This document shows, one piece after another, positions 4,012 to 61,346 of a DNA stretch of 64,000 nt. The stretch is from Candidatus Kaiserbacteria bacterium (GTDB lineage: Bacteria > Patescibacteriota > Minisyncoccia > Phycocordibacterales > UBA2100). Under the pieces are notes generated by a model. It made no database searches, was not told the origin of the DNA, and worked only from the letters and a program-made list of their open reading frames with translations. Position numbers and translations under genes: made by a program. The stretch's first letter is position 1, and each line of letters starts with the position of its first letter. The stretch is taken from the NCBI GenBank assembly GCA_016186695.1, contig JACPLC010000002.1:31335-95334 (forward strand). The letters run 5' to 3'.

Positions 4012-4032
4012 CTGCTACAATCCTATCCCTCT

Positions 4033-4923: not shown

Positions 4924-5002
4924 CGGGCATGCGCCCCATTAGAGGCCGCGGTCGCTGATTGCCTTCGTTTTTTGTCCGCGTACGATACCCACATAGAGCT
5001 TT

Positions 5003-7649: not shown

Positions 7650-8111
7650 TTATCCCGTGGCAGTTAAGTATCCGGAGTAGAAAAGATATGCCGTAAATCC
7701 ACAGCCGGAGGCCAAGCAAAGCAAGACAGTGCCCATGTGCTTCTTGTCAGAATCGAACTCTTCATTTTTAGGAACGTAGTGCCAGAAAAAATTGTTAAAG
7801 GGTGGTGAAAGAAAGAGCAACAATCCTCCCGCTGTCAAAAGCATCCCCAAGCCAAGAAAATATCCGGCAATCACTAGAGTTACTACATCCCGACCCGGGA
7901 AAAATGCAGCAATGCCTAGCGGCATCATTGCAAGCCCGGCAAACACGATTTGAGGCGGCCAAAAATAACGAGCAGCGAAATAGTCTGATTTTGTCATTGG
8001 TTTTCCAATATCTTTGCCAGCACGATATTTAAATCCCGAAGGAGATTGTAAAAACAACGAGTAGAATCCCCAAATGAACATCCCTAGTCCCGCGACTGTC
8101 CACCAAAACAT
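7650..8111 (-). CDS. Small integral membrane protein, hypothetical
   Basis: 153 aa with 4 predicted TM helices (MFWWTVAGLGMFIWGFYSLFL.., VFAGLAMMPLGIAAFF.., LVIAGYFLGLGMLLTAGGLLLFL..). Confidence 0.4.
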   Translation of the reverse strand: MFWWTVAGLGMFIWGFYSLFLQSPSGFKYRAGKDIGKPMTKSDYFAARYFWPPQIVFAGLAMMPLGIAAFFPGRDVVTLVIAGYFLGLGMLLTAGGLLLFLSPPFNNFFWHYVPKNEEFDSDKKHMGTVLLCLASGCGFTAYLFYSGYLTATG

Positions 8112-8112
8112 A

Positions 8113-9253: not shown

Positions 9254-10270
9254 ATGACGCCTAATACAGAAGTCCTCCGAGGGAAGCGCTTGCTCGTATG
9301 TGGCGGCGCCGGCTTCATGGGCTCGAACTTTATCCTCTATGCGCTTGAGCGCATTCCCGATCTTCGTATCGTCAATCTCGATCTTCTCACGTATGCGGGA
9401 AGTCTCGAGAATCTCGCAGGAGTTGATACGAGCCGGTACTCCTTCGTGAAAGGCGATATCGCTGATGCGGATCTGGCGGCCAAGCTCTTTAAAGACGCCG
9501 ACATGGTCGTTAATTTCGCGGCCGAGACACACGTAGACCGCTCCATCCATACATCTGCAGAGGCATTCGTCCGCACGAACGTGCTCGGCGTTCACTCGCT
9601 CCTTGAAGCACTTCGGCACTCGCCGAATGTCGAACGAATGGTCCACATCTCGACGGATGAAGTATGGGGCGATCTGCCGCTCGATTCAAAAGAGAGATTC
9701 ACCGAAGAGTCGCCATTCCTTCCGAATTCGCCGTACGCCGCTTCGAAGGCAGCGGGCGATCTTCTGATACGCGCGTACGTGGCGACGCACAAGCTGCCGG
9801 TTATCGTGACCCATTCGGTGAATAATTACGGTCCGCGCCAGTTTCCGGAGAAGCTCATCCCGTTCTTTACGGCGCGCGCACTTCGAGACGAGCCTCTACC
9901 TCTCTACGGTGATGGCGAGAACCGCCGCGATTGGCTCCACGTCGACGACCATTCGGAAGCGGTTTTGACGGTGCTCGCGAAAGGCGTTCCCCTCGAGGTG
10001 TATAACATCTCGCAACAAAAAGAATATTCCAACAAAGAGATAGCGCTGCGCATTTTGGAGATTCTCGGGAAGCCCGCATCGCTCATTTCATACGTCGAAG
10101 ATCGTCCTGCGCACGACCGCAAGTATGCCGTGGATTCAACGAAGCTCCGCAGCTTGGGCTGGACGCCGCGATCCTCACTCGAAGAGAAATTTCCCGATGT
10201 TGTGCGCGGGCTCGCGCAAAGCTTGTCTCATGGCGAAGTGCCTGCTACTAATACCCATATCAAATCATGA
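9254..10270 (+). CDS. rfbB: dTDP-glucose 4,6-dehydratase
   Basis: LLVCGGAGFMGSNF (Rossmann), ETHVDRSI, YAASKAAGDLLIRAY (YxxxK), NNYGPRQFPEKLIP. Likely start MTPNTEVL at 9254 (maximal ORF from 9209). Transcribed divergently from the GT4 at 9231. Confidence 0.85.
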   Translation: MTPNTEVLRGKRLLVCGGAGFMGSNFILYALERIPDLRIVNLDLLTYAGSLENLAGVDTSRYSFVKGDIADADLAAKLFKDADMVVNFAAETHVDRSIHTSAEAFVRTNVLGVHSLLEALRHSPNVERMVHISTDEVWGDLPLDSKERFTEESPFLPNSPYAASKAAGDLLIRAYVATHKLPVIVTHSVNNYGPRQFPEKLIPFFTARALRDEPLPLYGDGENRRDWLHVDDHSEAVLTVLAKGVPLEVYNISQQKEYSNKEIALRILEILGKPASLISYVEDRPAHDRKYAVDSTKLRSLGWTPRSSLEEKFPDVVRGLAQSLSHGEVPATNTHIKS

Positions 10271-41206: not shown

Positions 41207-43009
41207 ATGGAGGGTATCGAGAAGTTCCACATCTACCGCCAGCTCATAGCCGTCGCGCGCCTCGCGCGGAAAGCCTATGCGCCGTACCGCGCGCAGATCC
41301 TCGCACTCACAGGCTTGGGATTCATCGGCGGCATTCTTGAAGGCATTGGCATCAACGCCATCATTCCGCTCCTTACCTCTGCGCTCGGGCTCCAATCGCC
41401 GGCGACCGACATGATCTCGCAGGTGATACAAACCGTGTTCACGTGGGCGCATGTGCCGTTCGTCCCGCGTTACCTGCTTGCATTCATCGTTATTCTTTTT
41501 ATCGGCAAGGCAACGATGTCGCTTTGGATCAGCTACATTCAAATCCGCATCACGAACGAGTATGAACGCGCAACACGCGCAAAACTATTTTCCATGGTCT
41601 TGGATGCCTCGTGGCCGTATCTCCTTCGCCAGAAGCTCGGCAACCTCGAAACGCTTCTCATGATAGATACGCCGGCCGCGACCTCGCTCCTCTCGAAGCT
41701 TAGCTTCACCATCACGCTCCTCACGGGGCTTTTGATGTATCTTGCGGTCGCATTCTCGATCTCGCCCATTGTCACGTTCTGGACGCTCGTTATCGGGGCG
41801 TTGGTGTTCGTCTCTCTCCGCTCCCTCATCGATCGGGTGCATGGCATATCGCGATCGCGCACCGAAAGCTATCGGGACACGATGCATCATGTCACCGAGC
41901 ACGTGGGGGGCCTGAAGAGCGTGAAGGCATACGGTGTTGAGCGCTCCGCGATCGCGCTGGGGAACAGCCTTTTTGAACGCATCAAGAAACTCACGATGCG
42001 CATCGCGATGTTTCAGGCTACCGCGACACAGGTCGTTGCGCCGATCGGCGTTATCTACATAGCCGTGATCCTTTCGCTCGCGTTCAAGACCGAGTTCATT
42101 TCGGTCGCTGCACTGCCGGCGATACTCTACCTTATCTATCGGATCTTCACGTATGTGCAGCAACTGCAGAACAACGTGCAATATATTTCGGAACTTTCGC
42201 CGCACCTCGAACGCGTCATTCTCTATGAGAGCGATGCCGCGGGGGGTGTGCCACCTGTTTCCGGCGATAAGCCCTTTGTGTTCAACGAGAAGCTTCTGTT
42301 CGACAAGGTCACGTTCGCATACCTGCAGGGGAAGGATGTGCTGAAAAATGTCTCATTCACGATACGAAAAGGCTCGATGGTAGGCATTGTGGGTCCATCG
42401 GGAGCGGGTAAGACGACGACGGTTGATCTCATCCTGCGGCTACTTCTGCCGACCAAAGGCGCGATCTCGCTTGACGGTGTCGATTGCCGCGATATTTCTT
42501 TATCGGAATGGCGCGAGAACGTCGCGTATGTCTCGCAAGACCTCTTTCTCCTCCACGACACGATCCGCAACAACATCCGCTTCTACGATGATTCCATCTC
42601 GGAGAGCCAGGTATGGGATGCCGCAAAGAAGGCACACATTGACGGATTCATCAAGGCCTCTCCGGAGGGTCTCGATACGCTCGTGGGCGAACGCGGCATT
42701 CGCTTGAGCGCCGGTGAGCGTCAGCGCATCGTTATCGCTCGCGCTCTTGCCAGGAAGCCCGAGCTTCTCATTCTCGATGAGGCGACAAGCGCTCTCGACA
42801 ACGAATCGGAGGCGCACATAAAGAAAGTTATCGAGGAGTTGAAAGGACACATCACCATCGTCGCGATCGCGCACCGCCTCTCGACGATCATGGGCTCCGA
42901 CTCACTCATCGTGCTCTCCGATGGTGTGCTCGTGGAGGAAGGCCCGCCGCGCAAACTGCTCGCGGATACGAGCTCGTATTTCTACAAAGTCTATACCATC
43001 AATCAATGA
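41207..43009 (+). CDS. ABC transporter, fused permease/ATP-binding protein (MsbA-like exporter)
   Basis: Six-TM N-terminal domain, then Walker A GPSGAGKTT, signature LSAGERQRIVIARAL, Walker B LLILDEATSALD, and H-loop IAHRLST. Confidence 0.85.
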   Translation: MEGIEKFHIYRQLIAVARLARKAYAPYRAQILALTGLGFIGGILEGIGINAIIPLLTSALGLQSPATDMISQVIQTVFTWAHVPFVPRYLLAFIVILFIGKATMSLWISYIQIRITNEYERATRAKLFSMVLDASWPYLLRQKLGNLETLLMIDTPAATSLLSKLSFTITLLTGLLMYLAVAFSISPIVTFWTLVIGALVFVSLRSLIDRVHGISRSRTESYRDTMHHVTEHVGGLKSVKAYGVERSAIALGNSLFERIKKLTMRIAMFQATATQVVAPIGVIYIAVILSLAFKTEFISVAALPAILYLIYRIFTYVQQLQNNVQYISELSPHLERVILYESDAAGGVPPVSGDKPFVFNEKLLFDKVTFAYLQGKDVLKNVSFTIRKGSMVGIVGPSGAGKTTTVDLILRLLLPTKGAISLDGVDCRDISLSEWRENVAYVSQDLFLLHDTIRNNIRFYDDSISESQVWDAAKKAHIDGFIKASPEGLDTLVGERGIRLSAGERQRIVIARALARKPELLILDEATSALDNESEAHIKKVIEELKGHITIVAIAHRLSTIMGSDSLIVLSDGVLVEEGPPRKLLADTSSYFYKVYTINQ

Positions 43010-44436
43010 CTATGCGGGTGATGCTCATCTGGCCGTCGGGCGATCCTGAAATCAACATACTGCTGGACCGTTTGCACAATGAGGGACATAGAATCGCCTA
43101 CTGGGTGGGCGAACATCCGGTCGCGCATCTTGTGCCGCGAGGCTGCATTTTCCACGACCACTACGATGCGTGGGATGCGAAGCGGGCGGAATCGCTCCGC
43201 GACGCGGAGATTCCGCCGGCGAGTCCCGCACTCATTGAGTCGATGATAGCGAGCGAGTCGCTCATCCTCACGATGATGAACAAGCGCTACGATAGAGCGC
43301 CTGTTGATGAACGTAAACATGTCTATTACACGATGCTCGCATACTGGGACCACGTGCTCGAAATGGTGAAGCCCGACGTCGTCATCTACAATACCGTTCC
43401 GCACAGTATTTACAGCAATATTGTCTACGAGCTTGCAAAAAAACGCGGCATTCATACGCTCACCTTTGAAGAAACGTGGGTCGGAGGGCGCCTCATGTTC
43501 TACCGCGATTTTTGGAAGGGGAGCGATGGGTTTCGCGAGGCGCTCAAGAATATTCGCAAAAATAATGTCGAACTCTCCGAATTGCATCCCGAATTGCGCG
43601 AGTACTACGAGCGTCAAACAGGTAGAGAGAGCCAACGGAGCCCGTGGTACATGCATCGACAACGATCGGTAGGGGCAGGATTCGGGCTCTGGGCACATCG
43701 TGCGCGCATTGCCTTTCGCGCGCCGCACCTGATCTTTTCGAGAGCGTTTGGCCTCCTTGTACGATCGCTCCGCGCTGATCTACGCAGCGAATACGAGGCT
43801 CTTGTGCAAAGAGCAGAGGTCTCACGTCCATTTGTCTATTTTCCCCTCAACTTCCAGCCGGAGCGTACCACGAGCCCGCAGGGAGGAATATTTCACGATC
43901 AGATTCTTGCCGTAGAGACGCTCGCGGCGGCTCTTCCCGAGGGATGGGAGATACTCGTGAAGGAACATCCTTCGCAATGGTGGCTGCGGGGTAAAACCCG
44001 CTTCTCAAGTGCTCGCTACTCCGGATACTACGCACGACTCGCGGGCATCCCGAACGTAAAGCTCGTGCCCATTCATACGGACACGTTTGCTCTGACCGAC
44101 AACGCAAAAGTAGTTGCGACGATAACCGGTACCGCAGGATGGGAGGCACTTCTGCGCGGGAAATACGCGCTCGTATTCGGCATACCGTGGTATCGGGATT
44201 GTCCCGGCGTCTTACAAGTCCGTACTGTTGAAGAATGTAAAAAAGCGCTTGCGCTCGTACAAAAAAACCAGACGGTGCCTGCTACTGATGTTCTCTCTTT
44301 TCTCAAGGTCCTCGGTCAAGAGGGTACGCGGGCGTATCTCGTTTCTGCGCCGAATGCCCAGCCGGGAATACCGCTCGAGGAAAGCATGCGGGCGATTGCA
44401 GGCCGTCTGATTCGTGAATTGAGCACTCTTTCCTAG
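43006..44436 (+). CDS. Capsule-polysaccharide-biosynthesis-type protein (KpsS/KpsC-like, Capsule_synth-like), putative glycosyl/nonulosonate transferase
   Basis: 476 aa; ..EGWEILVKEHPSQW.. (HP motif) ..KLVPIHTDTFALTDNAKVVATITGTAGWEALLRGKYALVFGIPWY.. Paralogous to 59841-61346 (VKEHPQM.., TITGAAGWEAALLGRPVLTFG). ATGA overlap with the ABC exporter. Confidence 0.4.
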   Translation: MTMRVMLIWPSGDPEINILLDRLHNEGHRIAYWVGEHPVAHLVPRGCIFHDHYDAWDAKRAESLRDAEIPPASPALIESMIASESLILTMMNKRYDRAPVDERKHVYYTMLAYWDHVLEMVKPDVVIYNTVPHSIYSNIVYELAKKRGIHTLTFEETWVGGRLMFYRDFWKGSDGFREALKNIRKNNVELSELHPELREYYERQTGRESQRSPWYMHRQRSVGAGFGLWAHRARIAFRAPHLIFSRAFGLLVRSLRADLRSEYEALVQRAEVSRPFVYFPLNFQPERTTSPQGGIFHDQILAVETLAAALPEGWEILVKEHPSQWWLRGKTRFSSARYSGYYARLAGIPNVKLVPIHTDTFALTDNAKVVATITGTAGWEALLRGKYALVFGIPWYRDCPGVLQVRTVEECKKALALVQKNQTVPATDVLSFLKVLGQEGTRAYLVSAPNAQPGIPLEESMRAIAGRLIRELSTLS

Positions 44437-44467: not shown

Positions 44468-45514
44468 GTGCGATGCATGCGAAAAAGGAATACACGTAAC
44501 GTGACCTCTGGCAGCCTTTCAAGGCTCTTCAAAGGCAAGGTAATCCTCATAACGGGAGGCACGGGCTCGTTCGGTCGCGCGTGCGCGGAAGTACTTCTAA
44601 AAAAATACAATCCCAAAGTCGTGCGCATATACAGTCGCGATGAGCTGAAGCAATGGGAGATGGAGCGTGCATTCGGCGGATCAGTGAAACTACGCTTTCT
44701 CATCGGCGATGTGCGCGATGCCGGCCGCCTGAAGCGGGCGACCGAAGGTGTCGATATCCTCATTCACGCTGCCGCTCTCAAACACGTACCTGCATGCGAA
44801 TACAATCCGGTAGACGCTGTGCGCACCAACGTTGATGGCACTATCAACGTCATCAATGCCGCGCTCGACAACAACATCCCGCACGTCATCATGCTTTCGA
44901 CCGACAAAGCCGTGAACCCGACGAATATCTACGGCGCGACAAAGCTGTGCGCGGAGCGGCTCATCATCCAATCCAACAGCTACCGCGGCCCCTCACGGGC
45001 AACCCGTTTTTCCGTCGTGCGCTATGGCAATGTCTTGGGAAGTCGCGGCAGCGTGATCCCGCTTTTTCGCGAGCAGCGCGAGCGCGGCGAGGTAACGATC
45101 ACCGACGAACGTATGACGCGCTTTTGGATCACGCTGCCGCAGGCAGTTGATTTTGTTCTCTCAAGCCTCGGGTCAATGCAGGGCGGCGAGATATTCGTTC
45201 CGAAACTGCCTTCGATGCGTATTACCGACCTTGCATATGTTGTGGCACCAAAAGCAAAGCACAAGGTGATCGGGATCCGTGCCGGTGAGCGTTTGGATGA
45301 ATACCTCATGACACGGGAGGAAAGCCGCCGTGCATATGAAGATTCCGATCGTTACGTGATTGCTCCGGGCATGCATCCATGGCACTGGGATCAAAGCAGA
45401 CTGCGGGCTCTCAAGCAGGTAAAAAGGGATTTTGAATACAATTCGCGGGATAATCCGGAGGTGCTGAACAAAAGAGAATTGCAGAAGATCATCACAGACA
45501 ACCGGCTTGCATGA
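44468..45514 (+). CDS. UDP-GlcNAc 4,6-dehydratase (PseB/FlaA1/CapD family)
   Basis: ..KVILITGGTGSFGRACAEVLLKKYNPKVVRIYSRDELKQ.., ..IHAAALKHVPACEYNPVDAVRTNVDGTINV.., ..LSTDKAVNPTNIYGATK... The IYSRDE.KQ motif is typical of PseB/LegB. Confidence 0.8.
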   Translation: MRCMRKRNTRNVTSGSLSRLFKGKVILITGGTGSFGRACAEVLLKKYNPKVVRIYSRDELKQWEMERAFGGSVKLRFLIGDVRDAGRLKRATEGVDILIHAAALKHVPACEYNPVDAVRTNVDGTINVINAALDNNIPHVIMLSTDKAVNPTNIYGATKLCAERLIIQSNSYRGPSRATRFSVVRYGNVLGSRGSVIPLFREQRERGEVTITDERMTRFWITLPQAVDFVLSSLGSMQGGEIFVPKLPSMRITDLAYVVAPKAKHKVIGIRAGERLDEYLMTREESRRAYEDSDRYVIAPGMHPWHWDQSRLRALKQVKRDFEYNSRDNPEVLNKRELQKIITDNRLA

Positions 45515-46626
45515 TCCCTTATTCGAGGCAGGACATTGATGAACGTGACATAAAAGCTGTATCGCGGACGATGCGATCAGATTGGCTCACACAGGGTCCC
45601 GAGACAGAGAAGTTCGAGCGCTCTCTTGCAGGTTATTGCGGGGCGAAGTATGCAATCGCTGTGGCAAACGGAACGGCCGCGCTGCATGCAGCGTATGTTG
45701 CAGCTGGCATCAAAAAGGGCGATGAAGTGATTACGACCCCGCTGACTTTTTCTGCGACTTCGAACATGGCGCTCGCAGTAGGGGCAAAGGTAATTTTTGC
45801 AGACATCGATGAGAAAACGGGTAATCTCAATCCGGCTGAAGTGGCGCGAAAGATAACGAAACGAACGAAAGCTATCGTCGTGGTCGACTATGGAGGGAAT
45901 CCCGTAGATCTGCGTGCATTTCGCGCGCTTGCAAAAAAGCACTCACTCGTTCTTATCGAGGATGCCGCGCAGGCACTCGGCGCAACCTATCGTGGCAGGA
46001 AGATTGGCTCTGTCGCCGACATGACGACGTTCAGTTTTCATCCCGTGAAATCCATCACCACGGGCGAAGGTGGCGCAATTCTTACGGATCGAAAGGATTA
46101 TGCCGATACGCTCCGGCTTTTCCGCACGCACGGCATTCGGAAGGGAAATCCGAAACACCCCGCGTGGCATCAGGAAATGTTGCTACTCGGATTCAATTAT
46201 CGCCTTACCGATATGCAAGCGGCGCTCGGAAGTTCACAATTACGCCGGCTGAATACGTTCATCACAAAGCGTCGTGCTGCGGCATCGCGCTACTTCAAGC
46301 TTCTTAAAGGTAGTCGGCTGATTCTGCCGCCGGAGGATTCGCTTCGCTCGTCTGCTTGGCACCTTTTTCCCATACGGATTTCGAGAGGGCAGGTGAAGCG
46401 ACGCGATGAGGTGTTCGCAGGCATGCGGAGGCGCGGCATCGGCGTGCAAGTGCACCATGTGCCGGTTCACCTCCATCCATACTACCGGTCACTCGGATAC
46501 AAAAAGGGGCTGTGTCCGAAAGCGGAACAGTTTGCCGCCTCGGAGATCTCGCTCCCACTGTATCCCTCGATAACCGAGAGAGAGCAGCGATTCATCGTCA
46601 AGACGCTTTTACAATTACTCGGCTAA
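45511..46626 (+). CDS. DegT-family PLP-dependent sugar aminotransferase (PseC/LegC-like)
   Basis: ..GPETEKFERSLAGYCGAKYAIAVANGTAALHAAYVAAGIKKGDEVITTPLTFSATSN.. and ..SFHPVKSITTGEGGAILT.. (Lys-containing motif). ATGA overlap with the dehydratase. Confidence 0.8.
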   Translation: MIPYSRQDIDERDIKAVSRTMRSDWLTQGPETEKFERSLAGYCGAKYAIAVANGTAALHAAYVAAGIKKGDEVITTPLTFSATSNMALAVGAKVIFADIDEKTGNLNPAEVARKITKRTKAIVVVDYGGNPVDLRAFRALAKKHSLVLIEDAAQALGATYRGRKIGSVADMTTFSFHPVKSITTGEGGAILTDRKDYADTLRLFRTHGIRKGNPKHPAWHQEMLLLGFNYRLTDMQAALGSSQLRRLNTFITKRRAAASRYFKLLKGSRLILPPEDSLRSSAWHLFPIRISRGQVKRRDEVFAGMRRRGIGVQVHHVPVHLHPYYRSLGYKKGLCPKAEQFAASEISLPLYPSITEREQRFIVKTLLQLLG

Positions 46627-46642: not shown

Positions 46643-47980
46643 ATGGGAAAAAAGTTTCAAAAAGCGTTGCGCGATGGGCGTGGCCAGCGTCTCTGGAGAA
46701 AAGCAAAGACACTGATCCCAGGGGGCAATCAGCTTCTCTCAAAACGTGCAGAAATGTTCCTTCCGGAGCATTGGCCGGCGTATTATTCGAGAGCAAAAGG
46801 CGCGTACATCTGGGATCTCGATGGACGCCGATATACCGATATGTCCATCATGGGTGTCGGCGCGAATATTCTCGGGTATGGCGATCCGGACGTTGATCGC
46901 GCAGCGATAGACGCAGTGAAGCGCAGTCCGATGAGCACCCTGAATGCTCCCGAAGAAGTTGAGCTTGCGGAAGAACTCTGCAGGATACATCCGTGGGCGG
47001 ACATGGTGCGGTATGCGCGAACCGGTGGGGAATCCATGGCTGTCGCAGTACGCATTGCGCGCGCTCACACAAGACGTGACATCATCGCATTCTGCGGATA
47101 TCACGGATGGAGCGATTGGTATCTGGCCACGAATCTCGAGCGGAAGAATGCACTGGCCGGGCACCTTCTAGCAGGGCTTGAACCAAAAGGCGTACCGCAC
47201 GGACTTACCGGCACGATACTTCCGTTCCGCTATAACAGGCTCGAAGAACTGGAACGGATAGTGAAAAAGCACCCGACACTTGCGGCTATTGTCATGGAGC
47301 CGATACGCAATGTCGAGCCGGAAAAAGGGTTTCTGCAGAAGGTGCGGAAGATCGCGGACAAGGCGGGTGCCGTTCTCATTTTTGATGAAATAACCATCGG
47401 GTGGCGTCTTGTACACGGCGGTGCTCATCTCAAATACGGGGTCAACCCTGATATCGCAGTCTTCGGCAAAGCGCTCTCGAATGGCTATCCAATGGCTGCC
47501 ATCATCGGTCGCCGAAAGATCATGCAGTCGGCGCAGGATTCTTTTATCTCGAGTACCTATTGGACCGATCGTATCGGGCCCGCAACGACTCTCGCGGCGC
47601 TCCGTAAAATGAGAAAGGTCAAACTGCCGCAACAGCTTGCGCGAGTGGGGAAAGAGGTGCGACGCATCTGGCTAAGAGCTGCGAAAAAGCATGGACTCCC
47701 GATACATATAAACGGTGTTCTTCCGCTTTCGCACTTCTCATTTGAAGGAGCTGACGCGCAGGCAGCAAAAACACTTTTTACGCAGGAGATGCTGAGGCGT
47801 GGGTTTCTTGCAACCGACTCGCTGTATGCTTCGCTCGCACATACGCCGGCAATACTCACGCAATACGCGAAAGCCGTTGATACGGTCTTTGGCGTAATTG
47901 CGGCGGCAAGAAAGAAAGGTGGAGTCAAAAAGGCACTCAAGGGCCCCGTTGCCCACACCGGTTTTCAACGTCTCAATTAG
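46643..47980 (+). CDS. Class-III aminotransferase (glutamate-1-semialdehyde 2,1-aminomutase-like)
   Basis: 445 aa; ..LIFDEITIGWRLVHGGAHLKYGVNPDIAVFGKALSNGYPMAAIIGRR.. (PLP-Lys motif of HemL-like enzymes). Confidence 0.75.
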   Translation: MGKKFQKALRDGRGQRLWRKAKTLIPGGNQLLSKRAEMFLPEHWPAYYSRAKGAYIWDLDGRRYTDMSIMGVGANILGYGDPDVDRAAIDAVKRSPMSTLNAPEEVELAEELCRIHPWADMVRYARTGGESMAVAVRIARAHTRRDIIAFCGYHGWSDWYLATNLERKNALAGHLLAGLEPKGVPHGLTGTILPFRYNRLEELERIVKKHPTLAAIVMEPIRNVEPEKGFLQKVRKIADKAGAVLIFDEITIGWRLVHGGAHLKYGVNPDIAVFGKALSNGYPMAAIIGRRKIMQSAQDSFISSTYWTDRIGPATTLAALRKMRKVKLPQQLARVGKEVRRIWLRAAKKHGLPIHINGVLPLSHFSFEGADAQAAKTLFTQEMLRRGFLATDSLYASLAHTPAILTQYAKAVDTVFGVIAAARKKGGVKKALKGPVAHTGFQRLN

Positions 47981-48132
47981 GCTTGTTTTAAGGCCTTTGC
48001 TCGGAGGTGTCACACGCTGAGGGTCGCGTCCGCATGTGCTCACGCGGCGCTCCCGCTCGGCGCCTTCGCGCCTCCGCGAAGACCCTCACGACGCAATACC
48101 TCCTCGCTGCCGGAACGAGTTTCAAACGTGTG
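47981..48132. terminator. GC-rich structured intergenic region between convergent genes (nested inverted repeats); candidate bidirectional terminator or small structured RNA
   Basis: Inverted repeats read directly: tgagggtc (48018-25) / gaccctca (48081-88); cggaggtg (48002-09) / cgcctccg (48069-76, one G-U); ggcgc (48046-50) / gcgcc (48060-64). Confidence 0.3.
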
Positions 48133-48975
48133 CTAGCGTGGAATGAGCATGACGAGTCCGCCGACAATGAGGAGGAGAAGGCCGGCTTTCAGCCAGAAAT
48201 ACCGCTCGTGGAAATAGAGTTTGCCGGAGAGAAGCGCAAAGAGAACCGCGAAACTGCGCATCGCTGCCGCGATGACTGATGGGGGCGCGAATAGGTAGGC
48301 GAACGAATTGGCAATGTGCGCCAAGCCGGAGCTGAAGCTTTGTGCAAAGAACACGCTTCGTGCAAGAAAACGTAAAGGATTCTCGCGGGCGATGAATCGG
48401 GCGGCTACGAAGAAATACACGAGAAGGATCATCATGATAATGCCCTGTTCAGCCTCCACGGAATTGAAGTGCGAGATATCGTATTTGTAGAGGGAAATGG
48501 TCACCGAAGCATTTACTGCGCCGATGAGAAGGAACGAGAGGCCGCGCACCGTGTGTCTCTCATAGAAGAGCAGTGTCGAGACGGCGGCGAGTATGAGAGC
48601 CATACCGAGTACCTGCAGAGACGAGAGCGGATAGCCGAGCATGAGGTCAATGACAAGAAGCAGGGGGATCGTCAGTGATTTTACGAATCCAAAGTCAGCT
48701 CGGGAGGCTTCGATGATGCCGCGTGTCGTTACATACGCCTGCAGTATCTCGAGGATCGCGCGGGGGATAAATGTCGGAAGTGACGCGAGCGAAAAGACAA
48801 AACTGTCCCGAGCCATACCCAGGATGACGATAAAGAGCGTTCCGAAGAAAAGGCTGACGAAGCTAAGCGTGTAGACACTTGCCACTCTGTCGTGCCCTTC
48901 CTTTTTCCCGATCGACTCCGAGATCTCGGCAAAGAAGTTGCCAACGCCTGCGAGAAGAATACCGAACATAATCAA
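48133..48975 (-). CDS. DMT-superfamily (EamA-like) membrane transporter
   Basis: 280 aa with about 10 TM helices in two similar halves (..LSFVSLFFGTLFIVILG.. / ..ALILAAVSTLLFYE..; ..GIIMMILLVYFFVAARF.. / ..LLLLIVGGLVMLIP..). Confidence 0.5.
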   Translation of the reverse strand: MIMFGILLAGVGNFFAEISESIGKKEGHDRVASVYTLSFVSLFFGTLFIVILGMARDSFVFSLASLPTFIPRAILEILQAYVTTRGIIEASRADFGFVKSLTIPLLLVIDLMLGYPLSSLQVLGMALILAAVSTLLFYERHTVRGLSFLLIGAVNASVTISLYKYDISHFNSVEAEQGIIMMILLVYFFVAARFIARENPLRFLARSVFFAQSFSSGLAHIANSFAYLFAPPSVIAAAMRSFAVLFALLSGKLYFHERYFWLKAGLLLLIVGGLVMLIPR

Positions 48976-49047
48976 GCTGAAATTCTACTACCGGGCATAG
49001 GTATTACTGTAGCAGAGTTTCTTTAGCGGGCCCCCACGATATATAGT

Positions 49048-49812
49048 GTGACGATGACCGGCGCTATCATTCAGGCCCGTATGAGCTCGACCCGACTTCC
49101 CGGCAAAGTCATGCTGCCGCTTTCGGGTGAGCCGGTCTTGTACCATGTGGTCGAGCGGACGAAGCGCTCGCGAGGCGCTGATGAGGTCATTGTTGCAACG
49201 ACGGTTGAACGTGAGGACGATACGATTGCCGAATTTTGCCAGAAACGCGGCTATGTATGCTTTCGCGGTTCGCGTGACGATGTGCTTGGCCGCTTTCTCG
49301 AGGCCGCACGAGCGTCGAAGCTCGACACGATCGTGCGGATCACGAGCGACTGCCCGTTGATCGATCCGGACATCATCGATGAGACTATTCGCGCATATGA
49401 GCGGGAGTCTTGCGACTACCTGAGCAACGTCGGTCCGGGCGAACGTACATTTCCCCGCGGCCTCGATTGCGAAGTCTTTTCATTCGAGGCACTCTCGCGC
49501 GCGAACACTGAAGCTCGCGAGGAGTACGAGCGGGAGCACGTGACACCCTTTATGCACGAGAACAAAAAAGGTTCGTTCCGGATCGGTCCTCAAATTATGG
49601 CGTCGGGACCGTACGCGCGGCCGCAGTACAGGCTTACACTTGATTATCCGGAGGATTATCAGCTTTTCCAGCACCTCTTCGAGCGTTTTTATCGCGCCGG
49701 CGAAATCATATCCGTGCCGGAGGTCATAGCGTATCTCGACGAGCACCCCGAGATTGTTTCTATCAACGCGGCATACGAGGCAGAGTATCCACGACAGGGA
49801 ATACGCAGGTAA
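49048..49812 (+). CDS. Nonulosonic-acid cytidylyltransferase (PseF/SpsF-type acylneuraminate cytidylyltransferase family)
   Basis: MTMTGAIIQARMSSTRLPGKVMLPLSGEPVLYHVVER.. (cf. aiIqARmgStRLPgKvl); ..IVRITSDCPLIDPDIID.. Confidence 0.75.
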   Translation: MTMTGAIIQARMSSTRLPGKVMLPLSGEPVLYHVVERTKRSRGADEVIVATTVEREDDTIAEFCQKRGYVCFRGSRDDVLGRFLEAARASKLDTIVRITSDCPLIDPDIIDETIRAYERESCDYLSNVGPGERTFPRGLDCEVFSFEALSRANTEAREEYEREHVTPFMHENKKGSFRIGPQIMASGPYARPQYRLTLDYPEDYQLFQHLFERFYRAGEIISVPEVIAYLDEHPEIVSINAAYEAEYPRQGIRR

Positions 49813-49815
49813 CTT

Positions 49816-50499
49816 ATGGTGCAAGCATCGATCATCATACGCGCATACAATGCCGAAGCGACGATCGCCCGCGCACTTGAGAGCGTGTTAAAACAAGACG
49901 TTTCGTATACATACGAGATCGTCGTTGTTGATGATGGATCTCAAGACCGCACTGTGTCTATTGCGAATGAGTTCCTGCGCGAGAACGTGCGCTTGATAGA
50001 GCAGGGCAATCATGGAGTCTCATCTGCCGCGAACACGGGATTCTCCGCTGCGAGAGGAAAAGCCATACTCCTTCTCGATGCCGATGATGAGTTATTGCCG
50101 TCCGTAGCTCTAGGACTTGAGGCTCTTATATCATCACCCGCGGATTATGTGTATGGTGATTACATCGAAGAGTATCGCGGAGAAACGAGCCGCGTCCATG
50201 CGTCGGATCCCTTTAAGGTGCCGGCGGGTGCCGTCATCTGGCGTCGCGAGCGCCTTGTCGATGCAGGAGGATTCAAGAGCGAAACAGTGTTCCCTGAATA
50301 CGAGGTCTTACTCAAGATGTGGGATATCTGGAAAGGAATACACGTACCGGAGCCGTTTTTCGTCTATCATCGAACGGACACCTCTATCACGGCAGATAAG
50401 GAGCGTATTGCGGAGTCTATCCGGCTCTTGAAGCAAAAATTTCCGGCGCGGAGCAAAGAGATCGACCTGATACGAAACTACGATCCGCTCGCGCTATAA
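49816..50499 (+). CDS. Glycosyltransferase family 2
   Basis: MVQASIIIRAYNAEATIARALESVLKQDVSYTYEIVVVDDGSQDRTVSIANEF..LDADDEL (GT-A DxD-type). Confidence 0.7.
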   Translation: MVQASIIIRAYNAEATIARALESVLKQDVSYTYEIVVVDDGSQDRTVSIANEFLRENVRLIEQGNHGVSSAANTGFSAARGKAILLLDADDELLPSVALGLEALISSPADYVYGDYIEEYRGETSRVHASDPFKVPAGAVIWRRERLVDAGGFKSETVFPEYEVLLKMWDIWKGIHVPEPFFVYHRTDTSITADKERIAESIRLLKQKFPARSKEIDLIRNYDPLAL

Positions 50500-50527
50500 G
50501 ACGTGATGTGTATATACTGCAAGCGCC

Positions 50528-51187
50528 ATGAAAAAGAAACGACTGGTCATCACCGTTCTCATCGATAACCCGAAGAGCTGGTTTGTGCCACACGGGCGGG
50601 AGCTTGTCCGACGGCTGCAAAAACGAGGGCATCGAGCGTATTTGGTGCATGCCATGAACGGTCTCAAAAAAGGCGACTGCGCTTTTTTTCTAAGCTGCGA
50701 GAAAATCGTTCCTGCCCGTGTGCGCTCGCGCAACGCGCACAATATCGTCATTCACGGGAGCGCGCTGCCCAAAGGCAAGGGTATGTCGCCACTCACATGG
50801 CAGGTCGTGGAAGGGAAGAAGAAGATCCCGCACACAGTATTCGAGGCGGCCGACACGATCGACAGCGGCGTCGTCTACCACAGAGGTACACTGAAACTCG
50901 AAGGGCACGAGCTTCTCGATGAAATGCACGACAAACAGGGCGCTCTCATCATCTCACTCGCCCTGCATTTCATAGACTCATATCCGCCAAAAAAAGGAAC
51001 GCCGCAGCGAGGGCATCAAACACTGTATCGCCGCCGCCGGCCCGAAGACAGCGAGCTTGATCCCTCGCGGCCACTATCAGAGCAGTTCAACCTACTGCGC
51101 GTAGTCGATAACGAGAAGTACCCAGCATTCTTCAGGCACAGGGGTCACACGTATGTCCTAAAGATATACAAGAGAACACAACTATGA
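50528..51187 (+). CDS. Formyltransferase catalytic domain protein (Fmt/ArnA-N/PurN-like), probable sugar N-formyltransferase
   Basis: ..NIVIHGSALPKGKGMSPLTWQVVEG.. (SLLPxxRG motif with catalytic His) ..FEAADTIDSGVVYH.. (Asp of the N/H/D triad). 219 aa, only the N-terminal catalytic domain. Confidence 0.7.
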   Translation: MKKKRLVITVLIDNPKSWFVPHGRELVRRLQKRGHRAYLVHAMNGLKKGDCAFFLSCEKIVPARVRSRNAHNIVIHGSALPKGKGMSPLTWQVVEGKKKIPHTVFEAADTIDSGVVYHRGTLKLEGHELLDEMHDKQGALIISLALHFIDSYPPKKGTPQRGHQTLYRRRRPEDSELDPSRPLSEQFNLLRVVDNEKYPAFFRHRGHTYVLKIYKRTQL

Positions 51188-52239
51188 AGAGAGAAATACG
51201 TATTGGGAAACGCGCGATCGGTTCGCGACACCCTGTTTTTGTCGTTGCCGAACTCTCTGGCAATCACAAGGGCGATATCAAACGGGCACTGAAGATTATC
51301 GACGTGGCAGCAGAGGCCGGAGCAGACGCGGTCAAGCTCCAAACCTATACGCCTGACACGATGACAATAAACTCCCGCGGCCCGCTCTTTGTTGTGAAGA
51401 CGAATCCGGCGTGGAAAGGGAAAACACTCTATGAGCTCTACAAGGAGGCCCATACGCCGTGGTCGTGGCACAAGAGACTCTTCGCGCATGCCAAAAAGCG
51501 CGGCCTTATCTGTTTTTCAACGCCATTTGATGAGACCGCAGTCGACTTTCTCGAGACACTGAAAGCACCCATCTACAAAGTTGCATCGTTTGAGATCGTC
51601 GATATTCCGCTTCTAAAACGCATCGGGCGGACGAAAAAACCGGTCATTCTCTCTCGCGGCATGGCGAGCAGGGAAGAAATCGCACGTGCCGTCCGTACGT
51701 TGAGAAAAAGCGGCACAAAGGACATCGTCCTCTTGCATTGTGTCAGTGCGTATCCCGCGAAGCCAAAGGACATGAATCTGAAAACCATTCCCGATCTGAA
51801 GAGGCGTTTTCACGTAGAGATCGGGCTCTCCGATCACACATTGGGAAACGATGTCGCGATCACGGCGGTTGCGCTCGGTGCCACCGTGGTAGAGAAGCAC
51901 GTGACACTGAAGCGATCCGAGGGCGGACCCGACGCCGCCTTCTCGCTCGAGCCGCGCGAGCTGAAAGCACTCGTGAAATCGATCCGCACCGCGGAAGCAG
52001 CGCTCGGCAAACCCACCTATGCGCGCAATCCCGATGAGAAACAAAATATCGTGTTCCGCCGGTCACTGTTCGTCGTTCAGGATGTGAAAAGGGGGGAGAG
52101 ATTCACCAAGAAAAACCTCCGTTCTATCCGGCCCGGATACGGTCTCGCGCCGAGATTCTATGATGTCGTTCTCGGCAAGCGAGCCACGCGCAATATTGCC
52201 CGTGGCACGCCGCTCTCGTGGACGTTGATACGGAAGTAG
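51184..52239 (+). CDS. Nonulosonic acid synthase (NeuB/PseI family) with C-terminal SAF domain
   Basis: ..RHPVFVVAELSGNHKGDIKRALKIIDVAAEAGADAVKLQTYT.. (cf. NeuB AEiG.NHnGdl..A..mI.aA..aGadavKfQ); ..GLSDHTLG... ATGA overlap with the formyltransferase. Confidence 0.85.
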   Translation: MKREIRIGKRAIGSRHPVFVVAELSGNHKGDIKRALKIIDVAAEAGADAVKLQTYTPDTMTINSRGPLFVVKTNPAWKGKTLYELYKEAHTPWSWHKRLFAHAKKRGLICFSTPFDETAVDFLETLKAPIYKVASFEIVDIPLLKRIGRTKKPVILSRGMASREEIARAVRTLRKSGTKDIVLLHCVSAYPAKPKDMNLKTIPDLKRRFHVEIGLSDHTLGNDVAITAVALGATVVEKHVTLKRSEGGPDAAFSLEPRELKALVKSIRTAEAALGKPTYARNPDEKQNIVFRRSLFVVQDVKRGERFTKKNLRSIRPGYGLAPRFYDVVLGKRATRNIARGTPLSWTLIRK

Positions 52240-52374
52240 GAGACAGCGCGTAACAACGGGGAGAGACGGGGGCACGCACAGTGAACTGAACGCGAGTTAA
52301 ACTGTGTCCGTCCCTAAATCCCCATAGTTGTGGAAGACTCGTCTTGATCAAGCTGCACCATATATAATGATTTC

Positions 52375-53586
52375 ATGCGCTCTGGACATCTCCGTCTTCT
52401 AACGCTCGCATTGGCCATCGCACTATTCGGCTCGTTGCAAGCGTCTATCGTTTTTGCGCAAGACGTGAGCACCACTACCGCGTCGAACACGGAGCTCCAA
52501 GCGATTATTCGGCAGCTGCAGGCACAAATCAGCTCACTGCAGGAACAGTTGCTCGCATTGCGCCGCGAGGTAGCCGTTGTGAAAGCCGAAGTCGCACTCA
52601 CGAAAACACTGCGAAGGGGCAACACCGGAGAGGAAGTGAAGAGGTTGCAAGAACTCTTGGCTTCAGATCCCGATGTGTATCCAGAGCAATTGATCACCGG
52701 CTATTTCGGTGCCCGTACCGAATTCGCAGTCAAAAGATTTCAAGAAAAGTATCAACAAGATATCCTGGCACCCTTCGGTCTGACCGAGGGCACTGGTATT
52801 GTGGGAGAAGTGACACGGCAGAAGCTGAATGCCGCCGCAGCGCCCGCGAGTTCATCGGAGCTGGCGATTACTGCAAGGGCGATCGCAGGAAATGAAATCT
52901 CGGCAACACCCCCAAGTGCTGCGATACCCACTTCCTCCACGACCGTAACGACCTCTGAAACGGTCGCGGTCTCTCCTGTCGCGACTCAATCACAGTCGTC
53001 CACGCCTCCACCGGGTACCGCCCTTCCACCTCCCGTGACGACGCCAGCGCCGTCTCCAGCGCCTGCACCAGCTCCGACACCAACGCCTGAACCGGTGCCA
53101 CCACCACCTCCTCCACCACCCGCCTTGCCCACCTCCTCTTGTAGCGGCGGAAGCGAACGCATACCAGGGTTACCAAATTGTCTAATGCCGGAAAATCTTC
53201 CAGGAACATCATGGAATGAGGTCGACAACGCAACAGGCGCGGTCATAAACGGCGCCATATGCAGCGCCTCGGTGTGCGGGCGAAACGGCGAATGGAGAAC
53301 GCAGCTCAATTTCCCGAGCGGTTCTACATACATTCAGACGCCGTACAATGTCGCATATTGGGGGCGATACTTCGTTAACGGCGTTTGGGAAACCGCTGCC
53401 GGAGTCATACTCCAACCCGGAGAAATTCCTCCACCACCTCCTTCTGACACATCCGATTCGGGAGCAGACACGGCAACAGGTACACAAAGTACTCGGACAT
53501 CTTCGTTCGCTTCAACGAGTCAAGTCGCGAGTGTGCTCGAAGCTATTCGGCAGCTCCTGAACCAATTGCTTCAGCTTCTCCGGTGA
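52375..53586 (+). CDS. Secreted protein: coiled coil, peptidoglycan-binding (PG_binding_1-like) domain, poly-Pro/Thr linker and a Cys-containing C-terminal domain
   Basis: Signal MRSGHLRLLTLALAIALFGSLQASIVFA; ..LRRGNTGEEVKRLQELLASDPDVYPEQLITGYFGARTEFAVKRFQEKY.. (PGBD pattern); ..PPVTTPAPSPAPAPAPTPTPEPVPPPPPPPPALP.. Confidence 0.55.
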   Translation: MRSGHLRLLTLALAIALFGSLQASIVFAQDVSTTTASNTELQAIIRQLQAQISSLQEQLLALRREVAVVKAEVALTKTLRRGNTGEEVKRLQELLASDPDVYPEQLITGYFGARTEFAVKRFQEKYQQDILAPFGLTEGTGIVGEVTRQKLNAAAAPASSSELAITARAIAGNEISATPPSAAIPTSSTTVTTSETVAVSPVATQSQSSTPPPGTALPPPVTTPAPSPAPAPAPTPTPEPVPPPPPPPPALPTSSCSGGSERIPGLPNCLMPENLPGTSWNEVDNATGAVINGAICSASVCGRNGEWRTQLNFPSGSTYIQTPYNVAYWGRYFVNGVWETAAGVILQPGEIPPPPPSDTSDSGADTATGTQSTRTSSFASTSQVASVLEAIRQLLNQLLQLLR

Positions 53587-59080: not shown

Positions 59081-59809
59081 TTAGGAGAAACCGCGAATTC
59101 GCTTCTCCACCTCTTTGCGATTCCCGAAAATAACCTCTCCAACGACAAAATCCTCCGGCTCGTCGAGATCGATCGCGCGCCAGCGCGGGATCTCGTAGCC
59201 CACGAGTTTTCCGGGGAAGAATGTTTTTTCAGCGATAAGCTTTTTGGCGTCGACAAGGTAGAGCATAGAGCCGTCGAACCGGAAGTATGCGGGAAGCTGC
59301 TGCCTGTTGGGCGAGGTGAGCATCTCGGGATTCTCGAAGTGAATAACATTGCCTTTGTCTTTCGTCATCAGCACGTTCTCACTCCGGCATACGGAGACGA
59401 GTGAGTCCGCCCGCGAATCGTTAAACAATCTCACTGCACTCTCGATATCCTCCGACGTCCGCAATGGGCTCGTTGGCTGCAGCAAGAGGATGTGTGTCGG
59501 TTCATATCCATCTTTTCGTAATTGTTCAAGGAGATGAATAACAGCATCGACAACTGTGCTCGCATCCGTAGCAAGTTCCGCGGGACGCAGGAATGGAACT
59601 TCGGCTCCATATTTTTGGGCTATCCCCGCTATTTCTTGGGAATCAGTAGAAACTACGATCCGATCAAGCGAAGGGGCAGCTTTCGCAACTTCGATCGTGT
59701 ACGCGATGAGTGGTTTACCGGCGAACATCCGGATGTTTTTGTTCGGAATACCGCGGGAACCGGCACGTGCAGGAATTATTGCAAGTATGTTCGCGTCTTT
59801 TCGGGCCAT
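59081..59809 (-). CDS. CMP-nonulosonic acid synthetase (NeuA/LegF acylneuraminate cytidylyltransferase family)
   Basis: ..ILAIIPARAGSRGIPNKNIRMFAGKPLIAYTIE.. (cf. NeuA aiIpARgGSKgi.gKNi). Start MARKDAN at 59809 (the maximal ORF reaches 59881). Confidence 0.8.
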   Translation of the reverse strand: MARKDANILAIIPARAGSRGIPNKNIRMFAGKPLIAYTIEVAKAAPSLDRIVVSTDSQEIAGIAQKYGAEVPFLRPAELATDASTVVDAVIHLLEQLRKDGYEPTHILLLQPTSPLRTSEDIESAVRLFNDSRADSLVSVCRSENVLMTKDKGNVIHFENPEMLTSPNRQQLPAYFRFDGSMLYLVDAKKLIAEKTFFPGKLVGYEIPRWRAIDLDEPEDFVVGEVIFGNRKEVEKRIRGFS

Positions 59810-59840
59810 TGTGTTCCATTGTATAGTGGCATCTATCACT

Positions 59841-61346
59841 ATGAAAGGCTGCCTCGTTCTCCAACGGCGCTTCGCATACATCGGACATGAACTGGGGAAG
59901 CTCTTGAAAGAAAGACATGGGATCGACGAGTTTTGTGCATTTGTATCGCTGCGGGAGAGTTACGAATTCCTGAAAAATCAGAAAGACATTCGCTATACGG
60001 ATATTTTGCTCGACGAGGATGTACAGAAGCGATACGTAGATGAACCGCTCGATATGGAGTACATCCGGAAGTTCGAGAGCACCTACGGCAATGTCCGCGA
60101 CATGATAAAAGTGGATCGTGTCATTGCGCTCGGGCAATTAGTGCGAGAGTACCCGCATGCACGCTCCCCATACACTGAAGGTGAGCGTCTACGGATCGCT
60201 CAGGTATATGCGAAAAGTGTCGAGGCGTTTCTCGCGAAAGAAAGGCCCGATTTTATTCTCACCTACCAGCCCGGTGCACTCTGGATGCTGATGATGTACA
60301 AAATAGCGAAGCAGAAAGGCATCCCTGTGCTTACGATCGTCCTGCCAACCACGAAGAATCGTGTCGCGCTCTCCGAAGAGTACGGATCTCTCTCGTGGGT
60401 GGATGAGTGCTTCAAGCGGGATCTTGCCAAACCGCTTTCCGATGTGGAAGGGTACGAGGAAGCTCGGAAATTTATCGAGGAATTCCGCACGCGCCCTGTT
60501 GTATATTCTGATGTGTACACGAAACTCATCCAGCACGGCACATTGAAGCAATTCCGGTTCCTCGTGCCTCTCAATATGCTTTCTACACTGCGCTCTATCT
60601 TCTTTCTACTCTACAATTGGCTCCGGTCTTCTGCGCTTCGTACAGACTACAACGCACTCAAGCCTCATTGGTACCTATATGACCGTGTACGAAGAAAGTT
60701 GCGCAATCTTGTCGGCGTGAACGATCTCTATGACCCCTATGACTCAAAAAAATCGTTTGCGTTTTACGCGCTCCATTTCGAACCAGAGTTGTCTGTGCTT
60801 TTGCTCTCAGAGGAAACCGATCAGCGGGTCATAATTGCCAAGCTCGCGGCTGCTCTTCCCGAAGAGATGCTTCTCTACGTGAAGGAACATCCGCAGATGA
60901 CCCCCTATCGCACGCGTGCCTATTATAAGCAGCTAAAAAAAATACCGAATGTGCGGCTCGTTCGGCCCGAGCTTTCAAGCTTCGATATCATGCGCTCTGC
61001 TCGTCTCGTCTCAACAATCACCGGCGCTGCGGGCTGGGAAGCCGCACTTTTGGGTCGACCGGTGCTCACCTTCGGCAATGTTTTCTACAATGCGCTTCCC
61101 TCAGTGGGGCACGTTACGGATATGAGCGAGTTACCCCGTGTGGTGCGGCAAACGCTCGAAAGACCCGTTCCCCGTGAAGAAGCGGAGCGGTATCTTGCAG
61201 CGCTTCTTAGAGAGAGTGCCGAGTGTGACATCCTTTCGGTCTGGGAATCGGAAATCGGAAGCCCGGATGCATCTGAAAAGCTCGCCGGCTTTGCAACTCT
61301 TCTTGCCCGCAAGATCAAACTCGTGACGACTCGTGATAGAAGGTAA
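59841..61346 (+). CDS. Capsule-polysaccharide-biosynthesis-type protein (KpsS/KpsC-like), paralog of 43006-44436
   Basis: ..EEMLLYVKEHPQMTPYRTRAYYKQLKKIPNVRLVRPELSSFDIMRSARLVSTITGAAGWEAALLGRPVLTFGNVFY.. Start MKGCLVLQRR (ATG 59841). The N-terminal 285-nt extension of the ORF overlaps the divergent cytidylyltransferase and was discarded. Confidence 0.4.
   Translation: MKGCLVLQRRFAYIGHELGKLLKERHGIDEFCAFVSLRESYEFLKNQKDIRYTDILLDEDVQKRYVDEPLDMEYIRKFESTYGNVRDMIKVDRVIALGQLVREYPHARSPYTEGERLRIAQVYAKSVEAFLAKERPDFILTYQPGALWMLMMYKIAKQKGIPVLTIVLPTTKNRVALSEEYGSLSWVDECFKRDLAKPLSDVEGYEEARKFIEEFRTRPVVYSDVYTKLIQHGTLKQFRFLVPLNMLSTLRSIFFLLYNWLRSSALRTDYNALKPHWYLYDRVRRKLRNLVGVNDLYDPYDSKKSFAFYALHFEPELSVLLLSEETDQRVIIAKLAAALPEEMLLYVKEHPQMTPYRTRAYYKQLKKIPNVRLVRPELSSFDIMRSARLVSTITGAAGWEAALLGRPVLTFGNVFYNALPSVGHVTDMSELPRVVRQTLERPVPREEAERYLAALLRESAECDILSVWESEIGSPDASEKLAGFATLLARKIKLVTTRDRR

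Follow-up and report, generated by a model that had tools for sequence, protein, structure and literature searches.

N-acyl groups on nonulosonic acids decide antigenicity, recognition by phages and lectins, and surface charge. Loci for nonulosonates and flagellin glycosylation have repeatedly been seen to hold formyltransferase genes (PMC5109656, PMC4875605, PMC6137143). One pseudaminic acid (Pse) 7-N-formyltransferase, PseJ of Anoxybacillus kamchatkensis (PDB 6CI2/6CI4), has been characterised (Reimer et al., 2018, ACS Chem Biol 13:3161, cited in PMC11040635). According to PMC11040635, PseF takes 5-acetamido-7-formamido pseudaminic acid (Pse5Ac7Fo) as well as Pse5Ac7Ac. Here we describe a formyltransferase-like gene at positions 50,528–51,187 of a 64,000-nucleotide stretch (the window) of the Candidatus Kaiserbacteria contig JACPLC010000002.1, where it lies in cassette 1, one of two nonulosonate cassettes. 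Its product belongs to a widespread group of related proteins, called clade A below, and from sequence comparison and structural modelling we predict with moderate confidence that it is an N10-formyl-tetrahydrofolate-dependent transferase acting on the PseC product and leading to 7-N-formyl pseudaminic acid. An earlier note on this DNA, made from its letters alone, had called the dedicated enzyme for such a group poorly defined, a statement that was outdated in view of the 2018 characterisation of PseJ, although PseJ is of another lineage.

Fold, active-site motif and family of the protein

The frame is a real gene: 1569 homologues of its product were found (best E 1e-133), the nearest of which are 91% and 78% identical, the latter also from Candidatus Kaiserbacteria. 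The PF00551 (Formyl_trans_N) domain was recognised at 29.7 bits against a cutoff of 26.1, covering residues 50–134 only, and an AlphaFold2 model built with a 30-sequence alignment reached a predicted local distance difference test score (pLDDT) of 92.4. Foldseek matched this model to 1ZGH (TM-score 0.77), to the N-domain of HypX (0.75) and also to the transformylase domain of ArnA, VioF, WbkC and Rv3404c, all with probability 1.00 and TM-scores of 0.65–0.77. The modelled protein thus has the formyltransferase fold, and together with PF00551 it bears out what the earlier note had read from the HGSALPKGKG motif of a 219-residue product. The pLDDT drops to 69 at residues 81–90, as would be expected for a ligand-gated loop.

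Comparison of 30 diverse family members showed that His76, Ser78, Pro81, Gly83, Gly85 and Asp112 (in D112-x-G114) are invariant, and that the S78-x-L-P81 loop as a whole is invariant or nearly so. The canonical Asn two residues before the His (N102 of ArnA, N106 of PurN), which in ArnA and the sugar formyltransferases is regarded as catalytic, was not found in the window protein, where Val74 stands in its place, and at least 90% of the family carry Val at this position. The family pattern ...HN-L-V-V-H-x-S-x-L-P-x-G-K-G... aligns with ...F-N-L-H-G-S-L-L-P-x-Y-R-G of ArnA such that the column ‘lvvh’ matches ‘fnlh’ of ArnA, and a WlaRD-like canonical sugar formyltransferase carries the Asn-x-His pair (FFNVHFSLLPKYRG). 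Consequently, the catalytic triad claimed by the earlier note holds for His76 and Asp112 but not for the Asn. Since the oxyanion-stabilising Asn is replaced by Val clade-wide, the chemistry of clade A must use a modified catalytic set. The canonical residue is likewise missing from 1ZGH and its relatives, called clade B below.

The equivalog models of the known enzymes stayed far from their cutoffs. The Fmt model TIGR00460 gave 31.2 bits against 201.5, and the protein has no C-terminal tRNA-binding domain; the ArnA equivalog gave 44 bits against 777, and the PurN equivalog did not match the protein at all. A profile of the clade-A family scored 77.7 bits on 1ZGH, approximately 58 on ArnA and 29.9 (E 4e-6) on PseJ, to which the window protein as a single sequence had no match at E≤1. 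In a maximum-likelihood tree of 53 proteins (LG+G4, quick search, with a long-branch warning), clade A was monophyletic with the window protein inside it (SH-aLRT, that is, Shimodaira–Hasegawa-like approximate likelihood ratio test, 100), sister to clade B (96), with Fmt (92) and PurN/PurU (99) placed elsewhere, so the clustering with housekeeping Fmt or PurN that the earlier note had thought of did not occur. The members share the signature DNPxSW...HN(L/I)V(V/I)HxSxLPxGKGxSPxTW...FEA..(V)DSG...LRVVDNE(R/K)YPAFF, all blocks of which are present in the window protein, which is 41–91% identical to them. No curated model exists for clade A, and its homologues carry the public name ‘methionyl-tRNA formyltransferase’ (JGI, NCBI). 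Judged by sequence, clade A appears to be a distinct clade of sugar N-formyltransferases, separate from housekeeping Fmt and PurN.

Clade A in pseudaminic acid clusters

With each GTDB species represented by one genome, a pattern scan placed clade-A relatives in at least 253 species, in phyla of the candidate phyla radiation (CPR), Micrarchaeota, Bacteroidota, Clostridia, Alpha- and Gammaproteobacteria, Cyanobacteria, Verrucomicrobiota, Omnitrophota and Brocadiaceae. Eighty loci were fetched, their open reading frames (ORFs) were called, and labels came from phmmer and jackhmmer comparisons with the proteins of the window and with seeds derived from the loci. In these loci the clade-A gene is almost always inside a pse cluster, with the order PseB–PseC–(PseF or CTP_transf_3)–PseG–A–PseI outside the CPR, that is, clade A occupies the classical pseH position. 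In three of them (L046, L064 and L084) the six genes abut and form a contiguous operon without space for another gene. Among 47 genomes searched, PseG was above its cutoff in 20, usually adjoining A, and PseH in three, in each case outside the A locus; one of the genomes combines a PseG and PseH cluster on one contig with a PseG–A fusion cluster on another.

Fusions are common in this clade. When 1.84 billion cluster representatives were searched exhaustively, 585 matched at E≤1e-30; of the best 150, roughly three quarters exceed 300 residues and have the A domain at the C-terminus. The longer homologues include many PseG–A (approximately 570 residues), PseG–GNAT–A (approximately 720 residues) and GNAT–A or A–GNAT proteins, and more rarely fusions with PIG-L, HAD, ATP-grasp or APH domains. 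As most relatives are fused, the form in the window is the less common architecture; the stand-alone domain described by the earlier note is true of the window but atypical of a family whose members are mostly joined to PseG or to PseG and a GNAT. The GNAT domain of two A–GNAT proteins exceeds the PseH cutoff, with 112 bits in P0211 of Campylobacter cuniculorum and 93.6 bits in P0130. Clade A is evidently a partner of PseG, yet it does not just stand in for a GNAT; the plain reading that A replaces PseH was softened in view of the PseG–GNAT–A and PseH–A fusions. P0211 lies in a flagellin glycosylation island (CP020867.1; locus L102, 9001–10356) with a second stand-alone GNAT just upstream, while genes for a methyltransferase, PseI, two Maf proteins and flagellin follow downstream. 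C. cuniculorum is a cultivable carrier of A beside a PseH-like GNAT.

Gene content was compared in 54 loci with A, PseC and PseI within 9 kb, the counts being made on related genomes and not on independent events. The paralogue B is present in 20 of these loci and always accompanied by PIG-L (20/20), whereas A occurs without PIG-L in 21. Twelve loci have no PIG-L, class-III aminotransferase, GNAT, hexapeptide transferase or B; in them the sole free amine is that of the PseC product, and no acyltransferase-like protein other than A is encoded. A class-III aminotransferase is found in 18 of the 54 loci, usually with CTP_transf_3, and in eight of the nine GNAT loci; it stands without a GNAT in the window and in L006. 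PIG-L adjoins four of the five inspected triple-fusion loci, which gives two amines for at least two transferase domains. The pairing of B with PIG-L (for example, L035, 10638–12006; L080, 10728–12117; L007, 8631–9998; L031, 11700–13062) has the look of a module in which the other nitrogen is first deacetylated and then formylated, and neither of the two genes is present in the window. In the simplest scheme, A would act on the C4 amine (the future N7), B on the amine freed by PIG-L (the future N5), and the GNATs would add further or alternative acyl groups.

A connection to chemistry is provided by Kuenenia stuttgartiensis MBR1 (Brocadiaceae), whose nonulosonate cluster was found by profile search to carry a clade-A gene. 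The cluster is ordered LegB-like, nucleotidyltransferase, PseC/LegC-like aminotransferase, PIG-L, WbqC-like, clade A, NeuB, CTP_transf_3 and PseG-like, the same order as described for NZ_LT934425.1 in the SugarBase preprint (10.64898/2026.04.20.719630), which reports by mass spectrometry that the CMP-nonulosonates of K. stuttgartiensis bear one formylated and one free amine. The clade-A member is the only Formyl_trans_N gene besides Fmt and PurN in this complete genome; its product shares 41% identity with the window protein and likewise carries Val in place of the Asn. Although correlative and drawn from a preprint, this case is the best available evidence for formyl transfer by Asn-less clade-A proteins in nonulosonate biosynthesis. 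At 4028–6616 of locus L100 (approximately 2.139–2.142 Mb), an IS1634 transposase immediately precedes the Kuenenia LegB-like ORF, which matches only positions 109–296 of the LegB model; the dehydratase gene may be 5′-truncated although the product of the cluster was detected. The WbqC-like protein (PF08889) adjoins the clade-A gene or fusion both here (L100, 9108–9776) and in L103 (11865–12581).

The position before A is variable. PseG was absent from all 20 CPR/DPANN genomes among the 47 searched, and the order CTP_transf_3–GT2–A–PseI was seen in the window and in L006–L009, L014 and L015, as opposed to CTP_transf_3–PseG–A–PseI elsewhere. The GT2 genes in the PseG slot are located at 9309–10001 (L006), 7948–8625 (L007), 7942–8625 (L008), 1959–2684 (L009), 9276–9956 (L014) and 1024–1716 (L015). 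The GT2 protein of the window is soluble and has 6P61, a 228-residue glycosyltransferase, as its best PDB relative; the gene order suggests that it may be a non-orthologous UDP-sugar hydrolase. Neither PseG nor GT2 was found in 22 of the 54 A loci. That clade A itself substitutes for PseG, an idea that arose because CPR genomes without PseG and GNAT–A fusions exist, was rejected, as non-CPR genomes have PseG beside A or fused to it.

Proposed pathway and competing explanations

The host genome (0.90 Mb in 10 contigs, 93.7% complete) narrows the choice of substrates. Cassette 1 has neither GNAT/PseH nor PseG among its genes, and the absence of PseH, pointed out for the cassette by the earlier note, extends to the entire genome, where the best match, a RimI-like GNAT encoded on a different contig, reached 47 bits (cutoff 93.1). 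A separate acetyltransferase for cassette 1 was found neither in the cassette nor elsewhere in the genome. Genome-wide searches likewise gave no match for PseG and no PIG-L deacetylase; without the latter, no free sugar amine other than that of the PseC product is predicted for cassette 1. Fhs, the formate-tetrahydrofolate ligase, was not found in this 93.7% complete assembly. The genome holds FolD, a PurN-like gene and an Fmt of its own (179.5 bits), and N10-formyl-tetrahydrofolate should be available because of FolD and Fmt. The PurN-like formyltransferase (226 residues; G000:C1:7085-7657; locus L004, 1480–2160) lies approximately 24 kb before the window start, scores 83.5 bits against a cutoff of 150 and adjoins a serine recombinase, in a host that is not expected to make purines.

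We propose the following pathway. PseB and PseC, identified by their equivalog scores, would convert UDP-GlcNAc to UDP-4-amino-4,6-dideoxy-beta-L-AltNAc. The clade-A enzyme would then move the formyl group from N10-formyl-tetrahydrofolate to the 4-amino group, presumably by means of His76, Ser78 and Asp112. UDP would be removed next, the candidate for this step being the GT2 protein in the PseG slot, and PseI would condense the sugar with phosphoenolpyruvate into Pse5Ac7Fo. Finally, the CTP_transf_3 enzyme would make the CMP-sugar, which the KpsS-like transferase could use for a surface glycan. The prediction of the earlier note, that a formyltransferase in place of PseH leads to an N-formylated nonulosonate, is backed by comparative genomics, by the PseH slot and by the Kuenenia case, the 4-amino group being the more likely target amine.

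Several observations weigh against this pathway. The canonical Asn is Val across clade A, and A often coexists with GNATs, many PseG–GNAT–A triple fusions included; the A–GNAT fusions above the PseH cutoff mean that A is not simply an alternative to PseH in those organisms. Some loci hold a GNAT, A, B and PIG-L together, that is, more acyltransferase-like domains than amines, and these do not fit neatly into the division of labour between A, B and GNATs outlined above. The class-III aminotransferase of cassette 1 could supply another amine, the Kuenenia data leave the formylated nitrogen unspecified in a cluster that also has PIG-L, and no UDP-sugar hydrolase was identified in the host genome, hence the pathway is not fully accounted for.

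The strongest of the alternatives is that the protein is an active N-formyltransferase working on a different amine, either N5 after de-N-acetylation, the role proposed for the paralogue B, or a side-chain amine obtained through the class-III aminotransferase, with the 4-amino group left free or acylated by an enzyme that escaped identification. Such a role would suit the frequent fusion of A to PseH-like GNATs or its place beside them, the presence of PIG-L at the triple-fusion loci and the class-III aminotransferase gene in the window, and Kuenenia, with its PIG-L, one formyl group and one free amine, fits either assignment. We nevertheless consider it unlikely, since in a host genome without PIG-L N5 would stay acetylated, B tracks PIG-L strictly and A does not, and 21 of the 54 A loci do without PIG-L, of which the 12 that also lack the class-III aminotransferase and other acyltransferases leave the PseC amine as the sole substrate.

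Less probable still is the loss or change of formyl transfer along with the Asn to Val replacement, by which the protein would have become an accessory domain that binds folate or nucleotide sugars within the PseG/PseH machinery, a hydrolase or a transferase of another group, and N4 acylation here would fall to something that was not recognised. Besides the clade-wide lack of the Asn, the usual place of A as C-terminal domain of PseG or PseG–GNAT proteins and the surplus of acyltransferase-like domains over amines in some loci are compatible with such a function. However, the invariance of His76, Ser78, Asp112 and the SxLP loop over approximately 45% divergence argues for a conserved active site, and HypX, an enzyme of the formyltransferase fold, is described as working with a modified triad built around conserved His and Asp residues (PMC6802093). 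Kuenenia, moreover, makes a formylated nonulosonate, and its sole spare gene of this fold is the Val-bearing clade-A member, and the minimal six-gene clusters would be left without any N4-acylating enzyme. A housekeeping methionyl-tRNA or glycinamide ribonucleotide formyltransferase, as the JGI and NCBI names of the homologues and the weak, sub-threshold Fmt and ArnA matches would have it, is scarcely credible for a 219-residue protein that has no tRNA-binding C-domain and no PurN match, stays far under the Fmt cutoff, forms part of a separate clade, is strictly embedded in pse clusters and comes from a genome with a separate Fmt and a PurN-like gene.

Formylation of the PseC product, the reading that we prefer, can be extended to a broader proposal, which is tentative and on balance rather doubtful: clade A may be a widespread Asn-less class of nucleotide-sugar N-formyltransferases and nature's principal route to 7-N-formyl pseudaminic acid and related acids, evolved independently of PseJ, with GT2 replacing PseG as the UDP releaser in the CPR. 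The size of the clade, its fixed place beside PseG, its fusions, the missing Asn and the division of labour with the 1ZGH clade appear to be undescribed. The finding is sensible but would not surprise a glycobiologist, and its use lies in annotation: as databases call clade-A proteins ‘methionyl-tRNA formyltransferase’ or ‘PseG’, genome-based glycan prediction misses formylated pseudaminic acids, and with the clade assigned, sugars of the Pse5Ac7Fo type would become predictable from sequence in hundreds of species, including uncultivated CPR bacteria. If the assignment is true, CMP-Pse5Ac7Fo could also be made chemo-enzymatically with a second enzyme, whose mechanism may differ because the Asn is lacking. 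For the window itself, it would mean that an episymbiont with a 0.9-Mb genome spends genes on two nonulosonates of different decoration.

Surroundings of the gene and comparison with known systems

The features of cassette 1 are listed in the table. The ATGA overlap confirms the coupling to the NeuB/PseI-type synthase proposed by the earlier note, and the TIGR03586 score identifies the partner as PseI. A promoter and terminator scan of 47,900–52,500 gave sites no more numerous than in shuffled sequence. CTP_transf_3 is the sole nucleotidyltransferase in many A-type pse clusters. The cassette further includes an EamA transporter in opposite orientation, and an ABC exporter and the KpsS-like protein are encoded upstream of it. 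Cassette 2 runs on the minus strand; it is of the legionaminic type and includes a hexapeptide acetyltransferase of its own. A Capsule_synth/KpsS-like protein flanks each cassette, the second one being encoded at 59,556–61,346 (+), and a KpsS-like gene recurs beside A-type pse clusters in the fetched loci; it is plausible that the two proteins are dedicated nonulosonate transferases, one per cassette.

Table. Features of cassette 1 and of the clade-A gene (window positions)
Feature	Positions	Strand	Evidence
KpsS/Capsule_synth-like protein, candidate nonulosonate transferase	43006..44436	+	PF05159, 37.2 bits
PseB, inverting UDP-GlcNAc 4,6-dehydratase	44468..45514	+	TIGR03589, 447.8 bits (cutoff 407.75)
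PseC aminotransferase	45511..46626	+	TIGR03588, 468.5 bits (cutoff 423.5)
Class-III (GSA-aminomutase-like) aminotransferase	46643..47980	+	PF00202, 154.6 bits
CTP_transf_3 cytidylyltransferase, likely CMP-Pse synthetase of cassette 1	49048..49812	+	PF02348, 121 bits
GT2 protein (227 residues) in PseG position, candidate UDP-sugar hydrolase (inferred)	49816..50499	+	PF00535
Clade-A formyltransferase-like gene (219 residues, P0001)	50528..51187	+	ORF, PF00551, homologues, AlphaFold2 model
Val74 codon GTC, position of the canonical catalytic Asn (ArnA N102)	50747..50749	+	HMMER alignment to ArnA
HGSALPKGKG motif, H76–G85 (catalytic His, Ser78, folate-loop SxLP)	50753..50782	+	aligned to ArnA HGSLLPxYRG
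Asp112 codon (IDSG), equivalent of ArnA D140, catalytic Asp	50861..50863	+	aligns to ArnA ‘aDaG’
ATGA stop/start overlap (TGA of the clade-A gene, ATG of pseI)	51184..51187	+	read from the sequence
PseI, pseudaminic acid synthase	51184..52239	+	TIGR03586, 494.6 bits (cutoff 340.25)

Of the described systems, PseJ is the nearest in proposed function. Both proteins have the formyltransferase fold, both genes lie in a pse cluster in place of PseH, and the same substrate (the PseC product) and the same product (Pse5Ac7Fo) are proposed for the two. However, PseJ is a distant relative, as judged by the profile score on its PDB entries alone, which is below those of ArnA, Fmt and 1ZGH, it consists of a 192–217-residue core where clade A has an extra small C-terminal subdomain, and clade A is without the canonical Asn. 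By these comparisons the window protein is not a PseJ orthologue. Two loci of Anoxybacillaceae, obtained as PseJ candidates from a PF00551 scan of 48 genomes, proved to encode WlaRD-like 3-N-formyltransferases and not PseJ.

The nearest relatives in the tree are the proteins of clade B, the 1ZGH family, named after a structural-genomics entry for a ‘methionyl-tRNA formyltransferase’ of Clostridium thermocellum with a Formyl_trans_C_2 domain (PF21553). Besides the close structural match, clade B shares with A the two-subdomain build, the lack of the canonical Asn and the presence in the same pse loci. The two clades nevertheless differ, with only approximately 20% identity and no match of PF21553 on the window protein, and the constant company of PIG-L, which B has and A has not, implies different target nitrogens. 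The N-domain of ArnA, VioF, WbkC, Rv3404c and WlaRD resemble clade A in the fold, in the HxSLLPxxRG-type motif, in the catalytic Asp and, if our assignment holds, in the nucleotide-sugar amine substrate and the N10-formyl-tetrahydrofolate donor. They differ from it by having Asn-x-His where clade A has Val-x-His, and the equivalog scores on the window protein are far under the cutoffs. PseH (TIGR03585), in turn, is a GNAT of unrelated fold that uses acetyl-CoA as donor, but it shares with A the operon position, the probable pathway step and the fusion to PseG, and in many organisms A and a PseH-like GNAT are parts of one polypeptide.

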